A stretch of 64,000 bases of DNA from Saccharofermentanales bacterium. GTDB lineage: Bacteria > Bacillota > Clostridia > Saccharofermentanales > DTU023. The DNA is taken from assembly GCA_050951925.1 (NCBI GenBank), contig JBMNJZ010000001.1:1427015-1491014 (forward strand), written 5' to 3'. Made by a program: the position numbers and the translations under genes. Below, in pieces: positions 57 through 8,899 of this stretch. The first letter of the stretch is position 1. Every line of letters starts with the position of its first letter. Below the pieces are notes generated by a model. It did not search any database. It was not told where the DNA came from and saw only the letters and a list, made by a program, of their open reading frames with translations.

Positions 57-3000
57 TTATCTTCTGCGCCGGCGTTTATTGTCTCGTCTGATGCTATAGC
101 CTAAGAATATGAGTACAACAATCAGAACGACAACCAGCAGGAAAAATAAAACCCAGCTCAGCGATGAGAAACTAAATCCGGAACTGCTCTTGGTCAGTTC
201 CGAGTTAGTTGTCGTCATGTTTTCACTTCCCACTGTTGTTGATGCAGGCTCAGACTCAGTATCCGGGCTTTCAGCAACTGTTTCTTGGCCGGTCACGGTA
301 TTCACAGATGGGTGTGTGAAATGGCTGGTCGATATCGGGCTGTCAGGATCGTCAGCGGCCAGCTGATAGCCGGAATAGGCCCGGCCGTAATTACCCGGAT
401 CTTGCCCGTGAGGAGTAACACCCAGTTTCTCTGCACCCTCTTCCAGCAAAGACCGCATCAGAACATCAATACCCAGCGGATGTCCCTTATATTTCAGTTC
501 CGCACCGAGGATAACTCCAATCAGAAGACGATCATCATGAGTAGTTCCCGCACCGACCAGACAATAGCCTGCCAGATCAGTTGTGCCTGTTTTTACGCCA
601 TCATAGCTCTTAAAGTAGCTTGAGCCGTACAATGCAGGCGAGGCCAAAACCAGTTTATTGGTGTTGCGGAGTATTTTCCAACCCGCGACAGGGTGTTTGC
701 TATTAGCCGGCATGCGGTAAGCACTAGTTGTTACCAACTTATGAAAAAAATCATTTTTTAAGCCCTCTTGGGACAACAATGCCAGATCATAAGCTGTAGA
801 ATAATGGTCGCCTTGAGTGAAGCCGCTGGGATTAGTAATTGCTGTATTTTCAGCGCCTAACTTATGGGCGAATTCGGTAGCCATGGCGCAAAATGCATTT
901 CTTTTCTCCAGCGCTGTTCCTTTCTGCAAGGGAGAATAGTTCTCAGCCAGGACATTAGCGCAGTCATTGGCCGAATGTACCATCAAGGCATATAGACATT
1001 CCTCAGTAGTGATCTGCTCGCCGGACACTACACCAGCCCGGGCTGATACGGCTGATGGCAGCTGTGTTGCCTGCGGTGAGACTGTTACAATTCTGTCCGG
1101 ATCAAAACCCGGAAGATTAAGTACGGTAAGAGCCGTTAATATCTTGGTAGTACTTGCCATAGGCAGACGTTTATAGCCGTTGTAATCAATAATAACTTCT
1201 CCTGTTGCGGCATTAAGAACTAAGTAAGCCTTAGCCTTTATGTCTTCGAGCTGCGGCCAATAATCAATTATTTCTGCTGCATTATCTGTCTGAATGTCGA
1301 GATTTTCGGCTGCCGATGTTGTCGTTGATTCTTCGGCTTCAAAATCAGCTGCTTCGGTTTCAAGTTTGCTTTCTTCAATTTGCGCAGTAGCGCTAATGTC
1401 CGCCTCGCCCGCAGCAAGAACAGACCTGGCCGGCGAATTTATCAAGCTGATGGCTGTGAGCAGTGCCAGCAATAAGGCCACAGCATTAGCTCCGGCATGA
1501 TAACCGGTGCGACCCCCTCGTTGTTTCCAGCGCACCCATAACGGGCTGGCCAGAAAGAGCGATGAATAGGTCCCGGCCGCAATGCCGAACATCATAGGCA
1601 AGGCAAACTCAGTAATGCTGGACAGGCCGTATAACTGAGCGAAGATAAAGGCAACGGCAACTGCCAGAAAGGTTGCTGCCGAAGTATTGACGGAGCGTGA
1701 CAGGGATTGGCGAATTGACTTATTTACCAGCTCATCCAGAGGAATCGTCCCACCGGTCAGACGGATATTTTCACGAATGCGATCATAAACCACAATCGTA
1801 TCATTGATTGACCAGCCCAAAATAGTTAAGATCACTGCGATGATGGTTTCGTTAATGGCATCGCCGATCAAGACAATAAAGAAAAATACAGCTAGAATAT
1901 CGTGCAACAATGCTAACAAAGCCATAAACCCCGCGGACGGACCGGACATGCTTCGGAATGAGAACCAGATATAAATAATGATCAGAGCCGAAGCCAGTAG
2001 TACGGCCTTGAGACCATTGAGCAGCATTTCCTTACCGATCAAAGGATCAACCAACTGCGAGGAGGAGAGTTTGATATCGGTTCCCGGATATGCTTGCTCC
2101 AGTGCCTTTGTTACCTGATCCAGCTGTTCGGGGGTAAGTGACTGATTGCCGGCGATATTGAAAGAGATTTCTGTCCTGCTATCGGCTCTGGAAACCATTG
2201 TCTGGGCGCCAACTTCCCGGTTCAATTCAGTCTTTAGCAATGAACTCGCTTCTTCAGGATCTATCTGCCCCTCATAAGCATAATTAATAATACTGCCGCC
2301 GCGGAAATCAATATCAAGATTGACGCCTCGAATCACCGATACAACAACACCGGCTAAAATCAGCACAGCAGATAAAACTGCGAAAGTACGCACATGCCTA
2401 CAGTAATCGTAGGGTTCTTTATGAGGCTTATTGCTTGTTTTGCGCTTGCCATAGAGCCAAGGGTTTTGGAAATATTTGTTGTTAGCTAAAGAACCAATCA
2501 TCAGCCTAGTCATCCAGACACCGGTAATTCCGTTCATGATGACCCCCACCAACAGCGAGTAGCCAAAAGACAAGGTAGTGCCTGAACCGAAGAACATCAG
2601 CATGGCCGCAGCAATCGCTACCGTCACATTGCCGTCAAAGACTGATGAGAATGCTCTGGTAAAACCATTACTGAGTGCAGTAGGAAGATTATCACCGGCA
2701 TTAAGTTCTTCTTTAATGCGCTCCGATATGATGACATTGGCATCTACGCCCATGCCGATCGAAAGAATAATGCCGGCAATACCTTGCAAAGTCAGGGTCT
2801 GTTGCGGGATGGAAATAGCAAGCAGAATGCCGGCTACCTGCGTGTAGAGAGACAGACAGGCGGCAAAACCGGTCAGACGGTAATACAGCAACATATAGAT
2901 GCTGAGAAGCAACAGAGCTATAATGCCGCTGATCACCATCACTTTGAGGGAATCCTGACCCAAGCTGGGACTGATAGTAGATGAACTGGTCGCTTTAAGT

Positions 3001-3728
3001 GCAAAAGGCAGGGCACCGGCATTAATAGTCTGAGCCAGTTCCGAGGCGGATTCGGTAGTGAAGTTGCCGGAGATCTCAGCTTGTCCATCAAGAATCGGCA
3101 CCCTTACAGACGGCAGACTTATTACCTGGTCGTCCATATATATAGCGAGAACATCCTGATTAACCGCCAGGCGGGTGGTTACTTCAGCAAATTTTTCCCG
3201 CCCCTGTTCTTGTAGCTCCAGCAGAACAACCGGACTTTGGCTATTGGGATCCATACCGAAACGAGCCCGTTTAACATCGGCTCCGGTCAGAGCAACGGTA
3301 CCATCGGACTCGCGAAAAGTCAGAAGAGCCATCTCGCCCAGTTCTTGCAACGCTTCTTCCGGATTGAAGTCAGCTTCGTCTGCCTTCCAGGGAAAGCGCA
3401 CAATTATCCGGTCACTGTCGCGTCCGACAATCACATCACGATCAAGAATCTGCCGATTGTCCAGCCTCTGGTTTATGATGCGGCTGGCAGCATCCATCTG
3501 CTCAGCGGTAGGCTTGCCCTCAAAGCCTTGTGGGGTAAAGATTGCCTCTACCCCACCCCTGATATCAATACCAAAACGAATATCCCGGGCGCCTTTGATC
3601 TGAGTCTGTCCGCCGAGCCTGATGCCGAAAATCGCCACCAGGCTCAGCAGAATGACCAGAATTATTATCACGACAATCGTGCCGGGCTTACCCTTGACTC
3701 CAACTTTGGCAAATGATCGTTTCGCCAT
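57..3728 (-). CDS. secDF: SecD/SecF protein-export membrane protein fused to a C-terminal DD-carboxypeptidase (PBP5/DacB-like, peptidase S11) domain with a terminal TM anchor
   Basis: Single 1223-aa ORF. The N-terminal two thirds look like SecD then SecF (12 TM, periplasmic loops). An extra TM follows (AVALLLALLTAISLI), then an acidic linker. The last domain has SxxK (STTK, nt 1152-1154 Ser), SxN (SAN) and KTG (nt 591-593) motifs, and ends in a hydrophobic anchor plus RRRRR. Confidence 0.8.
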   Translation of the reverse strand: MAKRSFAKVGVKGKPGTIVVIIILVILLSLVAIFGIRLGGQTQIKGARDIRFGIDIRGGVEAIFTPQGFEGKPTAEQMDAASRIINQRLDNRQILDRDVIVGRDSDRIIVRFPWKADEADFNPEEALQELGEMALLTFRESDGTVALTGADVKRARFGMDPNSQSPVVLLELQEQGREKFAEVTTRLAVNQDVLAIYMDDQVISLPSVRVPILDGQAEISGNFTTESASELAQTINAGALPFALKATSSSTISPSLGQDSLKVMVISGIIALLLLSIYMLLYYRLTGFAACLSLYTQVAGILLAISIPQQTLTLQGIAGIILSIGMGVDANVIISERIKEELNAGDNLPTALSNGFTRAFSSVFDGNVTVAIAAAMLMFFGSGTTLSFGYSLLVGVIMNGITGVWMTRLMIGSLANNKYFQNPWLYGKRKTSNKPHKEPYDYCRHVRTFAVLSAVLILAGVVVSVIRGVNLDIDFRGGSIINYAYEGQIDPEEASSLLKTELNREVGAQTMVSRADSRTEISFNIAGNQSLTPEQLDQVTKALEQAYPGTDIKLSSSQLVDPLIGKEMLLNGLKAVLLASALIIIYIWFSFRSMSGPSAGFMALLALLHDILAVFFFIVLIGDAINETIIAVILTILGWSINDTIVVYDRIRENIRLTGGTIPLDELVNKSIRQSLSRSVNTSAATFLAVAVAFIFAQLYGLSSITEFALPMMFGIAAGTYSSLFLASPLWVRWKQRGGRTGYHAGANAVALLLALLTAISLINSPARSVLAAGEADISATAQIEESKLETEAADFEAEESTTTSAAENLDIQTDNAAEIIDYWPQLEDIKAKAYLVLNAATGEVIIDYNGYKRLPMASTTKILTALTVLNLPGFDPDRIVTVSPQATQLPSAVSARAGVVSGEQITTEECLYALMVHSANDCANVLAENYSPLQKGTALEKRNAFCAMATEFAHKLGAENTAITNPSGFTQGDHYSTAYDLALLSQEGLKNDFFHKLVTTSAYRMPANSKHPVAGWKILRNTNKLVLASPALYGSSYFKSYDGVKTGTTDLAGYCLVGAGTTHDDRLLIGVILGAELKYKGHPLGIDVLMRSLLEEGAEKLGVTPHGQDPGNYGRAYSGYQLAADDPDSPISTSHFTHPSVNTVTGQETVAESPDTESEPASTTVGSENMTTTNSELTKSSSGFSFSSLSWVLFFLLVVVLIVVLIFLGYSIRRDNKRRRRR

Positions 3729-3880: not shown

Positions 3881-4717
3881 TTAACCTACCTTTTCGCCCT
3901 TGGCATTGGTAAAGGCAGGCACCACAGAGCCATCATAGGTTTCTTCAATAAATTTCTTCACCTTTTCCGTCTGCAGAGCAGCTATCAGCTTCTGGAATTT
4001 TTCAGCCTCCAGCTCCTCGGTACGGACAGCGATAATATTGACATAAGGCGATTCGGCACCTTCAATTGCCAGCGCATCCTTGACCGGATTCAGACCGTGC
4101 TGGATAGCATAATTGCCGTTAATAACTGCAATCGCGGCATCACCATAGACAGTCGGGATTGCTGCGGCTTCCAAAGCCGTAAACTTCAGATTCAGACGAT
4201 TCTCTGTCACATCCTTCTCCGTGGCAGTTACACTATCCACGCCGAGTTTGATAAGACCCTGGGCTTGCAACAGTAACAGAGCACGGCCACAGTTAGTAGT
4301 ATCGTTGGGAATCATGACCTCATCACCGTCTTTGAGTTCATCCAGAGACTTCAAGCTCTTGGAATAAATGCCCATTGGCTCAATATGAATACCGCCCAGA
4401 TTGGACAGTTTCAGATCGCGCTCGGCAATAAACTCCTCAAAATACGGAATATGCTGAAAGAAATTGGCATCAATCTCTTTTTCCGCCAAATCTATATTGG
4501 GCTGGACATAATCCGAGTACTCTTTGATAGTAACTTTGACACCATCTTTTTGCAGATCTTCCACAACCTGCTTGACAATGTCCGCATGGGGCGATGGTGA
4601 GACACCGATCACGATCTCATCGTCTTTGGTTTCTTTTTTACTGCAGGAAGCACCTATCACTGCCGTAAAGGACAGAATAAATACTAATACCAAAATCAGA
4701 ACATTTTTCTTTTTCAT
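3881..4717 (-). CDS. metQ: Methionine ABC transporter substrate-binding lipoprotein (NlpA/MetQ family)
   Basis: Signal peptide with lipobox (VIGASC), MetQ-like sequence, last gene of the metN-metI-metQ arrangement. Confidence 0.85.
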   Translation of the reverse strand: MKKKNVLILVLVFILSFTAVIGASCSKKETKDDEIVIGVSPSPHADIVKQVVEDLQKDGVKVTIKEYSDYVQPNIDLAEKEIDANFFQHIPYFEEFIAERDLKLSNLGGIHIEPMGIYSKSLKSLDELKDGDEVMIPNDTTNCGRALLLLQAQGLIKLGVDSVTATEKDVTENRLNLKFTALEAAAIPTVYGDAAIAVINGNYAIQHGLNPVKDALAIEGAESPYVNIIAVRTEELEAEKFQKLIAALQTEKVKKFIEETYDGSVVPAFTNAKGEKVG

Positions 4718-4771
4718 TTTTTCAACCTCACAATAATAATTTTTGCGTCTGATGAGCTCAGACCTTAATTT

Positions 4772-5419
4772 TTATCTATGGTCAATCGCTCTGCTAAGAG
4801 CGTTACCAAGCAATTGAACTATTTGCACTAAGGCCACGATCATAAGAACTGCAATCACTAACTTCTCCGTGTGCCGATTATACAAGCCCCAGCGAATAGC
4901 CAGATCGCCTAATCCGCCGCCGCCAACCACACCAGCCATAGCCGAATAACCGATAATATTGATAACGGTTGTGGTCATGCCTTTGATCAGGGCCGGCAAA
5001 GACTCCGGCACTAACACTCTCGTAATCAGCTTGGGGATCGACGTGCCCATTGCCAGAGCTGCTTCAATCACACCGGTTCCTACTTCATTGATGCTTGTCT
5101 CCATAATGCGCGCAATGAAAGGAATTGCTGATAGTGTCAGTGATACTGTCATAGCCGGCGTACCGGAAGAACGACCTGTCAGAAGCTCTGACAAAGGTCT
5201 AAAGACCACAATCAGAATAATGAACGGAAACGAACGGAACAAATTGATGATGACGTCCATTATTCGATACAGTTTAGGCCGAGGCACAATCCCGTCCGGA
5301 TGGGTCAATACCAGCACAATGCCCAGAGGAAGTCCGATCGCAATCGAAAAGAAACTGGACAATCCAACCATAACCAGGGTTTCGTTTAAGCCCTGTAAAT
5401 AATCACCCATTATTATCAC
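4772..5419 (-). CDS. metI: Methionine ABC transporter permease
   Basis: Polytopic membrane protein with an ABC permease EAA-like loop. Its start overlaps the metN stop (ATGA coupling). Confidence 0.85.
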   Translation of the reverse strand: MIIMGDYLQGLNETLVMVGLSSFFSIAIGLPLGIVLVLTHPDGIVPRPKLYRIMDVIINLFRSFPFIILIVVFRPLSELLTGRSSGTPAMTVSLTLSAIPFIARIMETSINEVGTGVIEAALAMGTSIPKLITRVLVPESLPALIKGMTTTVINIIGYSAMAGVVGGGGLGDLAIRWGLYNRHTEKLVIAVLMIVALVQIVQLLGNALSRAIDHR

Positions 5420-6480
5420 CTCCCCCCGACTATCGAATTAACTTGAACGGCAAGCTGCTCTGCGCCGGCTTCCGGCTCAATTTTCTTAATATGTACATTC
5501 ATTGAACGCAAATAAGCGAGCGCCTCAACTACTTTAGCCGGATCCTCCTCGCTAAAAGTAACTGCCAGCCAGCCCAGCTGCTCATCCTGCAGAACATTGA
5601 TATCACCAGCCAGCAAATTGATATCCAGCCCGAACTTTCTGGACAGTTCAGAAATCAGCGGCCTGGCCACTTCGCTCCCGGAAAAGCCCAGTCTGTAAAC
5701 ATCAGCTTTGACGAAGGCGCCCAACTGCGAGAGCGGTCTCTCTTCGTCCAGGCTGCGGATCAGAGCTACCGTCCGCGGGTGCTTCGGCTCTAAGAACAGC
5801 TCCCTTACCGTGTTCTCCTCAATAATCTGTCCGTCTTCCATTACGGCAATCCGGTCACATATGCGGCGAGCCACCTCCATCTGATGCGTAATCATCACTA
5901 TGGAGATCTTAAGCTCATCAACCGTCTTGCGCAGCAAATCCAGAATCAGGATTGAAGTTGCCGGGTCCAGAGCAGAAGTACCTTCATCCGACAGCAGCAA
6001 TTTGGGAGAAGTTGCCAAAGCGCGAGCAATCGCAACTCTTTGTTTTTGTCCGCCGGACAGCTCAGACGGATAGGCTTTAACCTTGTCCGAAAGCTCTACA
6101 AAACCCAGAAGCTCTTCAACTCTGCGGGCGACTTCCGCTTTGCCCTTGCCTTGCAGCTCCAGAGGATAGGCAATATTATCCTTTACGGTCTTCTGGGCAA
6201 ACAGATTAAAGTGCTGGAATATCATGCCTATCTGCCGTCTCTTTGCTCTCAGTTCTTGCGGAGAAAGCAATGTCAAATCCACACCTTCAAAAAAGACTTT
6301 GCCGCTGTCCGGCTTCTCCAGCATATTGATACAGCGGATTAAGGTCGATTTCCCTGCTCCGGATAAACCGATCAAACCATAGATTTCACCCGGCGCCACT
6401 CTAAAAGACACATTCTTCACAGCCTCGATATCACCCTCCGGTGTTTGGAAGCTTTTATTTATTTCTCTTAACTCCAGCAT
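5416..6480 (-). CDS. metN: Methionine ABC transporter ATP-binding protein
   Basis: Walker A GLSGAGKST, signature LSGGQKQR, Walker B LLLSDE, C-terminal NIL/ACT-like domain. I moved the start to the ATG at 6480, preceded by GGAGGAGAG. The track start at 6555 would run into the leader terminator. Confidence 0.9.
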   Translation of the reverse strand: MLELREINKSFQTPEGDIEAVKNVSFRVAPGEIYGLIGLSGAGKSTLIRCINMLEKPDSGKVFFEGVDLTLLSPQELRAKRRQIGMIFQHFNLFAQKTVKDNIAYPLELQGKGKAEVARRVEELLGFVELSDKVKAYPSELSGGQKQRVAIARALATSPKLLLSDEGTSALDPATSILILDLLRKTVDELKISIVMITHQMEVARRICDRIAVMEDGQIIEENTVRELFLEPKHPRTVALIRSLDEERPLSQLGAFVKADVYRLGFSGSEVARPLISELSRKFGLDINLLAGDINVLQDEQLGWLAVTFSEEDPAKVVEALAYLRSMNVHIKKIEPEAGAEQLAVQVNSIVGGR

Positions 6481-6549
6481 CTCTCCTCCGCTGAACCATT
6501 CTTCATTCCGCCGATTCCCGGCTATTCCCGCCCTCATCGCCGCTTTCCC

Positions 6550-6584
6550 AAACAAAACAAAAAGGGAAGCACTCGCTTCCCTCC
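6550..6584 (-). terminator. Intrinsic terminator in the metNIQ leader (attenuator)
   Basis: Minus strand reads AGGGAAGC-GAGT-GCTTCCCT followed by TTTTGTTTTGTTT. It lies between the promoter/leader ORF and the metN start. Confidence 0.75.
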
Positions 6585-6606
6585 CACAGACCGGATCTAT
6601 TCCGAC

Positions 6607-6702
6607 TTATTGCATGAAGAAGGAAGCGAAGACAGGGCCGGGCATCATCATAGCTCTGGACATAGCTGGAGCAAAATCAGATTTCAGATTCAACACGGTC
6701 AT
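6607..6702 (-). CDS. Candidate Met-rich leader peptide (31 aa: MTVLNLKSDFAPAMSRAMMMPGPVFASFFMQ)
   Basis: ATG at 6702 sits 5 nt after AAGGAAG, and the stop TAA is at 6607-6609. Six of 31 codons are Met, including an MMM run. The ORF covers an antiterminator segment that pairs with the 5' arm of the terminator. Confidence 0.4.
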   Translation of the reverse strand: MTVLNLKSDFAPAMSRAMMMPGPVFASFFMQ

Positions 6703-6742
6703 CTCGGCTTCCTTTCTTGAATATTTTTTCAACTATTTGGAA

Positions 6743-6771
6743 ATTTTAGCTTTAACCTGCCCCCCTGTCAA
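6743..6771 (-). promoter_or_regulatory. Sigma-70-type promoter of the metNIQ leader
   Basis: Minus strand: TTGACA (6771-6766), 17-nt spacer, TAAAAT (6748-6743). Confidence 0.6.
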
Positions 6772-6783
6772 GCCCTGAATCAA

Positions 6784-8094
6784 CTAAATATAAAAATATC
6801 TTTCCACATCATTTCTGATTAAATCATCATAGCTTTGCCTCTTAACCGCAAGTCGGCATTCACCGTTTTTTGCGAAGACAACAGCAGGCTTTTTCATTCC
6901 GTTGTAGTTGGAACTCATGGAATAGTTATAGGCGCCGGTAGAGGGAATGACTAAAATATCTCCGGGACTTGCTTCGGGAAGCTTTATACTTTTAATTAAA
7001 ATGTCTCCTGTTTCACAGAGTTTTCCTGCTACTGTATACTCCTGAACAGGTTCATCATTTATCTTGTTGGCTATTCCCGCCTCATATTCGGCCTGATAAA
7101 GAGCGTGACGGGGGTTGTCCGTCATACCGCCATCTACAAATAAATACCGGCGCCCCGTGATGGTTTCTTTGATGCTTCCAATGGTATAAATTGTGGAACC
7201 GAAATCATTTATTAAAGACCTGCCCGGCTCAATACTTATAATTTCTACATCGAAATCCAAAGAACTTAATTTTTCTTCTATTGTGTGAACATATTTTTTC
7301 AAAAACTGAGACAAGTCGAAAGGCCGATCTTTTTCTGTGTAATAAACTCCAAAGCCGCCACCAAGATTAATTTCTTTAATATCTAAATCCAGCTTGGTCT
7401 CAATATCGTGGGCAAACTGAATCATGGCCAGGGCAGCTGCAAAGAAAAATTTTTCATCAAATATTTGGGATCCTATATGACAATGAATACCCCTGAAGTC
7501 TACATATTCATCATTATTTATCTCTTCTATCAACTCTTGAGTTTTTTCATTAAAGATGCTCATGCCAAATTTGGAATCATGCTTTGCGGTCTGGATATAC
7601 CTATGGGTTTCAGCTTCAATTCCCGGATTTACCCTTAGAAGAATTGACACCTTCACCCGGTCCCTATTTGCTATCTTGGAAATCAACCGGTATTCATATT
7701 CATTGTCAGCTACAACTGTTCCCACATCGCCGGATATGGCAAATTCCAGTTCTTCATATAATTTGTTATTCCCGTGACAGTAGATTCTTTCCGGAACCAT
7801 CCCGCCCTTTAATGCTGTATATAACTCGCCGCCGCTTACCACATCTATATATAGGCCTAATTCTGCTGCCAAATTGACCATATATAAATTTGTAAAGGCC
7901 TTGGATGCATAAATCACCCTGGTTTCAAATTTGTCCGACTGGAAATTATCTAAAAAGATTTGAGTTTTTTCTTTAAAACCCTCTTCGTCAACAATATACA
8001 AAGGCGTTCCGAATTCCTCCCTGAGTCTTTCCACGCCTACGCCTCCAATGTAGAGTTCATTGTTTCTGGCCTCCATCGTTCCAAAAAATTTCAC
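6784..8094 (-). CDS. lysA: Diaminopimelate decarboxylase
   Basis: Fold-III PLP decarboxylase motifs (YASKAF PLP-Lys region, HIGSQ, CETGD). The start is probably GTG at 8094 (SD AAGGGAG) or ATG at 8076. The track start at 8127 lies inside the upstream terminator. Confidence 0.85.
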   Translation of the reverse strand: MKFFGTMEARNNELYIGGVGVERLREEFGTPLYIVDEEGFKEKTQIFLDNFQSDKFETRVIYASKAFTNLYMVNLAAELGLYIDVVSGGELYTALKGGMVPERIYCHGNNKLYEELEFAISGDVGTVVADNEYEYRLISKIANRDRVKVSILLRVNPGIEAETHRYIQTAKHDSKFGMSIFNEKTQELIEEINNDEYVDFRGIHCHIGSQIFDEKFFFAAALAMIQFAHDIETKLDLDIKEINLGGGFGVYYTEKDRPFDLSQFLKKYVHTIEEKLSSLDFDVEIISIEPGRSLINDFGSTIYTIGSIKETITGRRYLFVDGGMTDNPRHALYQAEYEAGIANKINDEPVQEYTVAGKLCETGDILIKSIKLPEASPGDILVIPSTGAYNYSMSSNYNGMKKPAVVFAKNGECRLAVKRQSYDDLIRNDVERYFYI

Positions 8095-8227: not shown

Positions 8228-8899
8228 CTAGGCCTTGATTGTCACTATCTCTCCGTTCTGTTTCAGGATCGAATGGGCCGGCACATATCCTCGCACCGTT
8301 GTTAGCGGATAAATTCTGCTACCTGCACCTATCACAGAACCGGGATTAAGTACAGCATTGCAACCAATTTCCACCTGGTCGCCGATCATTGCTCCCATCT
8401 TCCTAAGATCGGTTTTTATTCTGTTTTCCGAGATTCTTATTTCCACATTTGTTCTATCAGATTTTATATTTGATGTAATTACTCCTGCGCCCAGATGGGC
8501 ACCATAGCCCAGAATCGAATCGCCGACATAGTTAAAATGGGGCGCTTCTACTTTCTCAATTAAGATAGAGTTCTTTATTTCAGTAGAATTGCCTACAACA
8601 CAATTGTTGCCAATCAGAGCATTGCCGCGCAGAAAGGCACAATGTCTGATTTCAGTTCCCGGGCCGACAATGATATTTGTGCCTAAAAAAGCCGACCTGG
8701 CTATGATGGCGGATCTGGCTATCCAGACATTGCCGGAATGTTTGACATAGTCGGACTCCGGCAATTTATTGCCTAAGGCCTCAATAAAGCCGCCAATATC
8801 TTTAAGGATTTCCCAAGGGTATTCAGAGCTTTTTAGCAGTTCTTCCGCCATGCCGTATCCATGTGGGAATAATGCTCTTGTTGTCAAAAAATTCTCCAT
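8228..8899 (-). CDS. Left-handed beta-helix (hexapeptide repeat) transferase, GlmU C-terminal-like
   Basis: Repeated [LIV]-G-x4 hexapeptide pattern through most of the 223 aa. Substrate unknown. Confidence 0.55.
   Translation of the reverse strand: MENFLTTRALFPHGYGMAEELLKSSEYPWEILKDIGGFIEALGNKLPESDYVKHSGNVWIARSAIIARSAFLGTNIIVGPGTEIRHCAFLRGNALIGNNCVVGNSTEIKNSILIEKVEAPHFNYVGDSILGYGAHLGAGVITSNIKSDRTNVEIRISENRIKTDLRKMGAMIGDQVEIGCNAVLNPGSVIGAGSRIYPLTTVRGYVPAHSILKQNGEIVTIKA

Follow-up and report, generated by a model that had tools for sequence, protein, structure and literature searches.

A putative methionine leader peptide and a predicted transcription attenuator upstream of metNIQ in an uncultured Clostridia lineage

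A leader of about 170 nt precedes the uptake transporter operon metNIQ in a Saccharofermentanales bacterium, on the minus strand of a 64,000-nt stretch of contig JBMNJZ010000001.1 (the window). The leader contains every sequence-level feature of an attenuator: an open reading frame (ORF) led by a Shine-Dalgarno (SD) sequence, a run of Met codons, an intrinsic terminator, mutually exclusive helices, a suitable geometry in silico, and a peptide sequence that varies among relatives. It is probably a ribosome-mediated attenuator of the classical kind, with charged elongator tRNA-Met as its signal. Homologous leaders lie directly upstream of metN in the nearest relatives, and sister lineages carry a T-box at the same locus.

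The leader open reading frame and its homologs

The leader and the three metNIQ genes are all encoded on the minus strand, and the region from 6300 to 7100 was read. In the order of transcription, the leader is composed of the following elements.

6743..6771, minus strand: sigma-70-type promoter TTGACA-17-TAAAAT, agreeing with the consensus at 11/12 positions in a consensus scan
6693..6718, minus strand: segment 1, the predicted 5' strand of the anti-antiterminator (minimum free energy (MFE) fold and RNAalifold), which holds the SD at 6714-6708, the start codon at 6702-6700 and codons 2-4
6714-6708, minus strand: SD sequence AAGGAAG of the leader ORF, 5 nt 5' of the start codon
6607..6702, minus strand: leader ORF of 31 codons plus TAA, encoding MTVLNLKSDFAPAMSRAMMMPGPVFASFFMQ, with ATG at 6702 and TAA at 6609-6607
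6643..6651, minus strand: AUG AUG AUG, the proposed regulatory codons, invariant in 8 complete leaders
6617..6629, minus strand: segment 2, UCGCUUCCUUCUU, predicted to pair with either segment 1 or the terminator 5' arm (antiterminator)
6592..6604, minus strand: small hairpin CGGA-AUAGA-UCCG, present in all folds, between the stop codon and the terminator and within the predicted antiterminator loop
6559..6585, minus strand: intrinsic terminator GGGAGGGAAGC-GAGU-GCUUCCCUUUU plus T-run, with an 11-bp stem (terminator scan)
6585-6575, minus strand: segment 3, the terminator 5' arm GGGAGGGAAGC, followed by the GAGU loop and then segment 4, GCUUCCC with the U-run

The initial annotation had marked a promoter, an SD sequence, an ORF with an MMM run, a terminator and the metN start in this region, and all of them are present at those minus-strand positions. 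The promoter at 6771-6743 is the sole promoter-like site found between 6300 and 7000 by the consensus scan, and the terminator at 6585-6559 is the sole terminator-like site in the leader region. The promoter is predicted to drive the leader-metNIQ transcript. Homologs possess a TTGACA or TTGACT −35 box and a TAnAAT-like −10 box at the equivalent relative position.

MetN relatives in a large protein collection share 94, 80, 80, 79, 78, 77, and 63% identity with MetN of the window, and all have the leader directly upstream of metN. The full leader set (MetN identity 63-100%) comprises eight distinct sequences, from the window and loci L081, L082, L084, L086, L091, L087, and L089, in addition to a 5'-truncated leader in L083. 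The MMM peptide first noticed in the window is thus conserved upstream of metN in relatives, being found in 8/8 full leaders. The preceding gene differs: it is lysA in the window, thrC in L082 and L084, and other genes elsewhere. Since the leader follows metN behind varied neighbors, the unit appears to belong to metN and to carry its own promoter.

The genomic context bears on the possibility that no regulation takes place, the terminator being leaky or related to lysA and the small ORF a neutral by-product. The lysA gene ends 12 nt before the −35 box (interval 6772-6786), with no terminator of its own in between, and lysA read-through could therefore also reach the attenuator. However, the unit goes with metN behind different genes and has its own promoter, and relatives have kept its Met codons as well as its alternative pairings. 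An unregulated leader is therefore highly improbable.

The Met run is the most constant part of the ORF. The leader peptide MTVLNLKSDFAPAMSRAMMMPGPVFASFFMQ contains six Met residues, three of them encoded by consecutive ATG codons, and the leaders as a group have 4-6 Met per 30-32 residues. A GCU-AUG-AUG-AUG-CCC block is invariant in 8/8 full leaders; in the truncated L083 sequence, the part preceding the third of these Met codons is cut off. The last Met codon and the GCUUCC of segment 2 are separated by a constant 15 nt in all leader sequences. The other peptides are MTVLNLKSDLVPAMSRAMMMPGHVFASFFML, MTELYYQSDLDMNLFRAMMMPRHTIASFFKQ, MTVLNSCRKAEVKIMTTAMMMPGHAIASFFCL, MKVLSNSKIPANIMTKAMMMPGHPIASFFIL, MNVLSNSKIPANIKTKAMMMPGHPIASFFIL, MRQTHLTKRHFSASAAMMMPGSAPASFFPM, and (V)TVLSRNMNPAVSMTKAMMMPGYDIASFLQL. 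Seven leaders start with ATG and one with GTG, and an SD sequence is always present with a spacer of 3-6 nt (8/8).

The N-terminal half of the ORF is divergent, with 12-64% nucleotide identity among lineages. Nevertheless, the MMM frame is the only one of the six that is open in 8/8 leaders, each of the other five having stops in at least one sequence. The number of codons before MMM is 16, 17, or 18, so that all indels are multiples of three (±3 nt). When the N-terminal half is shuffled, it stays open with a P of 0.31-0.59 per lineage, giving a product of 0.0037 over 6 lineages. The unit therefore stands above chance, because the leader recurs in relatives and its frame is open in these six diverged lineages. 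Differences in the N-terminal half show no preference for any codon position (207/247/256 at positions 1, 2, and 3), and this count gives no sign of purifying selection on the leader peptide. As a result, the case for translation is one of frame maintenance rather than of the ratio of nonsynonymous to synonymous changes (dN/dS). The comparison points to selection on the open frame and not on the peptide sequence, as expected of a regulatory leader rather than of a functional small protein, and the ORF is probably translated. An antisense ORF of 54 residues (6614-6778, plus strand) was considered and rejected, as the antisense frames contain stops in L082, L087, and L089.

Pairing segments and ribosome position

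Three mutually exclusive helices, designated 1:2, 2:3, and 3:4, are predicted in common for all 8 leaders. In the 1:2 helix, segment 1 (6718-6693) pairs with the 3' part of the ORF (6643-6617) in both the MFE fold and the RNAalifold consensus. The core of the consensus helix spans alignment columns 13-20 and 104-111, with pairs that are invariant or G-U. It is extended by pairing of the start AUG with CAU (columns 95-97) and of ACCG with the CGG right after the Met run.

In the 2:3 helix, UCGCUUCCUUC (6629-6619) is complementary to GAGGGAAGCGA of the terminator 5' arm and begins 13 nt past the MMM codons, as originally claimed. The antiterminator joins columns 102-114 to columns 150-163 by 13 pairs, with 98% of cells paired; against slid controls, the comparison is 94% versus 49-63% paired. 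A compensatory change from C-G to U-A is present at 103:161 in L086/L091. The 3:4 helix, the terminator, spans columns 150-160 and 166-176 in RNAalifold and contains compensatory pairs at 153:173 and 154:172 in L087 (G-C to A-U and A-U to G-C). The small CGGA/UCCG hairpin is kept in 7/8 leaders with variable loops, and L084 adds an A-U pair. In the MAFFT alignment, 81% of its cells are paired, with three sequences one column off. The invariant blocks are GGRAGC and a G at column 11 in segment 1, GCUUCCUUCUU in segment 2, and GGAAGC/GCUUCC in the terminator. The pairing of segment 1 with the 3' part of the ORF and the small hairpin (6604-6592) had been missed in the initial annotation.

The calculated domain energies in the window are −30.0 kcal/mol for 1:2, −24.6 kcal/mol for 2:3 with the small hairpin, and −15.4 kcal/mol for the 3:4 terminator. 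Those of the other lineages are similar. The effect of translation was modelled by a ribosome footprint reaching from −12 to +15 relative to the P site. With the ribosome absent, 1:2, the most stable of the three domains, would be the first to form, leaving segment 3 for the terminator. A ribosome whose A site holds the stop codon masks segment 2, and 8/8 sequences then fold into the terminator. When Met3, the third Met codon, occupies the A site and the transcript is ended at segment 3, as it would be at the time of the choice, the MFE structure is the antiterminator in 7/7 lineages, even though segment 1 is left free in the model. The antiterminator prevails under this stall because half of helix 1:2, the inner one, is hidden by the ribosome.

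These folds suggest the following sequence of events. Transcription would start at the 6771-6743 promoter, and a ribosome loaded on the strong SD would translate the 31-codon leader behind RNA polymerase. If no ribosome is present, segments 1 and 2 would pair and segment 3 would remain free, allowing the 3:4 terminator to stop transcription before metN. The 1:2 helix of this default-off state would also sequester the SD and start codon of the leader, shutting leader translation. When Met-tRNA is ample, the ribosome would reach UAA, covering segment 2 together with the first arm of the small hairpin; the terminator would form and the operon would be off. When Met-tRNA is scarce, the ribosome is presumed to stall with one of the three AUG codons in the A site. 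The stalled footprint would end about 4 nt before segment 2 and mask the inner half of 1:2. Segment 2 could then pair with the 5' arm of the terminator in an 11-13 bp helix that the small hairpin closes, permitting read-through into metNIQ. By calculation, the antiterminator exceeds the terminator in stability by about 9 kcal/mol. Antitermination may be helped by a further ribosome waiting on the leader.

The initial annotation had foreseen alternative structures of the trp/his type. The antiterminator and terminator are both conserved, and footprint folding gives the expected logic in all lineages. The trp/his-type logic is thus supported in silico, but the model needs a third helix, 1:2, and a different placement of the Met codons. 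In the trp leader the cognate codons lie in the 5' strand of 1:2; here the Met codons lie in its apical and 3' part, so a stalled ribosome would open 1:2 from the 3' side.

Several points weigh against the attenuator model. First, full-length equilibrium folds with the stall mask keep 1:2 and 3:4 in the window and in L087, and segment 1 is left uncovered by the stalled ribosome. Antitermination is obtained only in truncated-transcript folding, which imitates co-transcriptional folding. Second, support from covariation is thin, because the sequences are few and the key helices are almost invariant. The 3 compensatory pairs are each single events among 8 sequences of a narrow uncultured clade. 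Third, the third positions of the GCU and CCC codons beside MMM are invariant, and no predicted pair accounts for GCU. Fourth, Met starvation is expected to lower formylmethionyl-tRNA (fMet-tRNA) as well, which would cut initiation on the leader and favor the off state. This raises the question of how a system needing fMet-tRNA for initiation can sense a shortage of Met-tRNA.

Full-length equilibrium folding with ribosome masks was itself ambiguous and was replaced by truncated-transcript folding. Full-length masked folds of several other sequences display a 1:4 pairing, which was judged kinetically irrelevant. Given this ambiguity, the model depends on a presumed co-transcriptional order of folding.

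The conserved residues downstream of MMM coincide with nucleotides that pair in the RNA. CCCGGCCAU pairs with the start-codon region and GCUUCCUUCUU constitutes segment 2, so that conservation of the PG(H) and ASFF residues can be explained by RNA pairing. The same residues would be those of an arrest peptide of the TnaC/SpeFL type, in which a C-terminal AMMMPG(H)x(I)ASFFxx motif stalls the ribosome on free methionine or S-adenosylmethionine (SAM). The conserved part is the last ~14 residues, which a ribosome at the stop codon would hold in its exit tunnel, and a Pro codon follows the Met run here as well as in the Agathobaculum and Lachnoclostridium phytofermentans leaders described below. 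However, each conserved residue coincides with nucleotides required for RNA pairing, and the residues between them vary (VF, TI, AI, PI, AP, DI). A stall at the stop codon would merely reinforce a termination that already occurs without it, and three consecutive cognate codons are a hallmark of codon-based sensing. An arrest peptide in place of codon sensing is quite improbable.

A combination of the two, in which the leader senses Met-tRNA through its codons and methionine or SAM through the nascent AMMMPG..ASFF chain, has a similarly slim chance. AMMMPG and ASFF are both conserved, and the peptide and RNA constraints on them coincide and are inseparable with 8 sequences. If the leader did combine both, the Met-Pro motif, which recurs independently in the leaders of Agathobaculum and L. 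phytofermentans, would be part of a shared sensing motif.

Known RNA families and the distribution of the leader

Rfam 15 was searched at E ≤ 10 over 5500-8000 and over 6470-6790, and no SAM class, SAM-SAH, T-box, or amino-acid leader was matched in either. The latter segment was scanned alone, where the Rfam filters are most permissive. The matches returned at this threshold are noise, namely small nucleolar RNA, long non-coding RNA, and an L20 leader on the wrong strand. At the gathering threshold, the whole window contains RNase P and three tRNAs only. No SAM riboswitch reaches its gathering score in 11 homologous loci, and no Rfam family matches a homologous leader. As a positive control, 20 Firmicute metN loci were scanned; immediately before metN, 3 of them have a T-box and 7 have SAM-I. 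T-boxes are found upstream of metN in L001, L003, L071, L099, and L101, and SAM-I in L002, L004, L009, L020, L021, L051, and L068. The absence of SAM-I and T-box elements suspected by eye in the initial annotation is therefore borne out by a scan that detects both before other metN genes.

A novel riboswitch for SAM, methionine, or a related ligand would make the 1:2 helix a P1-like stem whose ligand favors the terminator, and the ORF would be incidental. The platform is typical of riboswitches: its 3' strand is shared, and its terminator arm resembles the 5' strand. In addition, no nucleotide of GCUAUGAUGAUGCCC varies, even at third codon positions, and SAM riboswitches commonly control metN in Firmicutes. 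However, an aptamer core would be conserved, whereas the stem encloses ~50 nt that share 12-64% identity and have no conserved sub-structure in RNAalifold. A riboswitch also leaves the open frame, the 3-nt indels, the SD and start codon, and the stop position unexplained, and no Rfam model matches. We regard a riboswitch as unlikely.

Antitermination might instead be mediated by a factor, either a protein or uncharged tRNA-Met, that reads the AUGAUGAUG repeat or another element and selects helix 2:3 or 3:4 irrespective of translation. The repeat bears a loose likeness to the triplet sites of TRAP, sister lineages have tRNA-sensing T-boxes at the same locus, and AUG is the Met specifier codon. 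However, only three triplets are present, and such a factor would not explain why the ORF is maintained. With a length of only ~170 nt, the leader has no Stem I or T-box sequence, and is unmatched at E ≤ 10 by the T-box model RF00230, which includes Stem I with its specifier loop and the T-box sequence. This explanation is improbable as well.

The leader family is narrow. It was not found by blastn-short and nhmmer in 80 metN loci of species-representative genomes, whose MetN proteins share at most 57% identity among the matches listed. An nhmmer profile of the 8 leaders, run against the window and 99 loci, identifies no second copy before any other gene. A motif-pattern scan of metagenomes returned 4 contigs, all variants within lineages already represented among the leaders; the scan required the invariant motifs, so diverged members were beyond its reach. 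MetN relatives at 57-60% identity (L001, L099, and L101) have T-boxes instead of the leader. The family boundary thus appears to lie at 60-63% MetN identity, where the leader would have replaced a T-box or the reverse. Such a replacement between a T-box and a leader peptide at one locus would have occurred between lineages whose MetN is 60% versus 63% identical to that of the window.

Two features of related contigs were observed in the course of this comparison. In L086 and L091, the spacer between terminator and metN is ~130 nt (L086 196-325; L091 about 6764-6640), compared with 20-80 nt elsewhere, and contains a second promoter-like TTGACA that might allow basal expression without the attenuator. 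In L090, the contig of a close relative, a cobalamin riboswitch (8561-8747, minus strand, 114.8 bits) lies about 6 kb from the leader, showing that these organisms use standard riboswitches elsewhere.

Relation to known systems and neighboring features

The metNIQ leader resembles trpL, hisL, pheL, leuL, thrL, and ilvL in having a promoter-proximal short ORF with a run of cognate codons. As in proteobacterial attenuators, helices 1:2, 2:3, and 3:4 overlap, the last being an intrinsic terminator, ribosome position would select among them, and the untranslated default would be off. The differences are several. The metNIQ leader uses methionine, which is outside the classical set, its host is an uncultured member of the Clostridia, and the genes it precedes serve uptake instead of biosynthesis. 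The leader's own SD and start codon make up segment 1. The leader has no sequence similarity to classical leaders and matches no Rfam leader model.

The Met T-boxes of L001, L003, L071, L099, and L101 occupy the same locus in the nearest relatives, choose between a terminator and an antiterminator, and are on under Met limitation. Charging of tRNA-Met is also the signal proposed for the metNIQ leader. Unlike the leader, a T-box recognizes uncharged tRNA directly, by means of Stem I and its T-box bulge, requires no translation, and is ~220-250 nt long. The metNIQ leader contains no such motifs and carries an ORF that is proposed to be translated. SAM-I (S-box) likewise regulates the metN operon by a termination platform with a partner-switching shared strand, but senses SAM via a conserved four-way-junction aptamer, and no such aptamer is present in the metNIQ leader.

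Methionine genes are otherwise controlled by MetJ/MetR, SAM riboswitches, T-boxes, or MET-box regulators. Methionine is a conspicuous gap in textbook leader-peptide attenuation, and the metNIQ leader is compact and fully specified. No Met-specific attenuator in Firmicutes was found in the searchable literature, and a Streptomyces annotation is the sole mention of a Met leader encountered there. In Streptomyces lividans TK24, a short multi-Met ORF, 'metL', lies directly upstream of metNIQ and was proposed to encode a Met-dependent leader peptide; its authors report no typical Rho-independent terminator and describe termination as unclear (PMC8079986). 'metL' differs in being leaderless, in its scattered Met codons (CMCRRMCAF), and in the lack of comparative or mechanistic support. 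It has no sequence similarity to the metNIQ leader and is closer to the Met/Cys-rich ORFs of Agathobaculum and L. phytofermentans. A further parallel is provided by the His leader peptides upstream of hisS/hisZ paralogues in bacilli, which replace T-boxes; according to the paper describing them, leader peptides are rare, and were otherwise not known, outside Proteobacteria and Actinobacteria (Naville & Gautheret 2010; PMC2965389). Like the proposed metNIQ attenuator, these occur in Firmicutes in the place of a T-box at the same gene, but the amino acid, genes, and lineage differ.

Among the matches listed (80 metN loci), only L080 and L079 also have a Met-rich, SD-preceded ORF followed by a terminator. 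Neither leader has an Rfam match. The corresponding features are as follows.

L080, 2296-2382: Met/Cys-rich leader ORF of Agathobaculum, with the terminator at 2450-2478; the counterparts in L094, L096, L097, and L098 lie at about 980-1185
L079, 2261-2371: leader ORF of Lachnoclostridium phytofermentans, MRTVNLINTMNMKMCCNNGCMCNSMPNTVRSKSGFL, SD-led, with 6 Met and 4 Cys; terminator at about 2409-2443
Window 6642-6640 (CCC), L080 2343-2345, and L079 about 2336: Pro codon after the Met run

The leaders of Agathobaculum and related gut metagenome-assembled genomes, for example MYSLDYRMLGCMDMMMPMFFHAHLSPTR and MYLTGYRMLTCMMMDMAMPMPMLPHAHLLPARSIQELFRTD, are kept in relatives with 86-91% identical MetN. 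Their Met/Cys core varies by multiples of 3 nt (CMDMMMPM, CMCMDMAMPMP, CMCMSMP, and CMMMDMAMPMPM). The SD strand pairs just after the Met codons, followed by a middle hairpin and a terminator with compensatory pairs. The Agathobaculum leader resembles the metNIQ leader in its SD strand and has MMMP and a GGGAAGC terminator arm in common with it. Attempts to draw a 2:3 antiterminator for the Agathobaculum leader gave nothing convincing, and homology between the two is thus not established. The L. phytofermentans leader has a 17-bp terminator and a fold z-score of −3.9, with no S-box or T-box, and resembles the Streptomyces 'metL' peptide in composition. Taken together, these leaders suggest that Met-codon leaders of metNIQ are recurrent in Clostridia and belong to a wider class, undescribed and unannotated.

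In all three leader types, a Pro codon comes right after the last Met of the run (MMMP, MPMP, and SMP). A Pro near the end of the codon run is also present in hisL, pheL, and ilvL.

The operon downstream of the leader and the gene upstream of it are composed as follows.

3881..6480, minus strand: metNIQ operon, from Pfam assignments and gene order in homologous loci
6480-5416, minus strand: metN (Pfam ABC_tran and NIL), starting at ATG 6480 with the SD GGAGGAG
5419-4772, minus strand: metI (Pfam BPD_transp_1)
4717-3881, minus strand: metQ (Pfam NlpA Lipoprotein_9)
6786-6784, minus strand: TAG stop codon of lysA (Pfam Orn/DAP decarboxylase domains)

The order of metNIQ genes after the leader is identical in homologous loci. 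Starting from the SD-preceded ATG at 6480, MetN is 354 residues long. In several contigs, the called MetN protein runs into the leader, with lengths of 373, 366, 369, and 386 residues in P0001, P0003, P0004, and P0005, and the leader ORF is uncalled by the gene callers in all of these contigs. In the window, the longest metN ORF begins at TTG 6555, immediately after the first T-run in the tail of the terminator.

Elsewhere in the window, a 1223-residue ORF (57-3728, minus strand) encodes SecDF (SecDF_P1_head and SecD_SecF_C) with a C-terminal Peptidase_S11 domain at residues 828-1077. The fusion of SecDF with a D-Ala-D-Ala carboxypeptidase is unusual and joins protein export and peptidoglycan functions.

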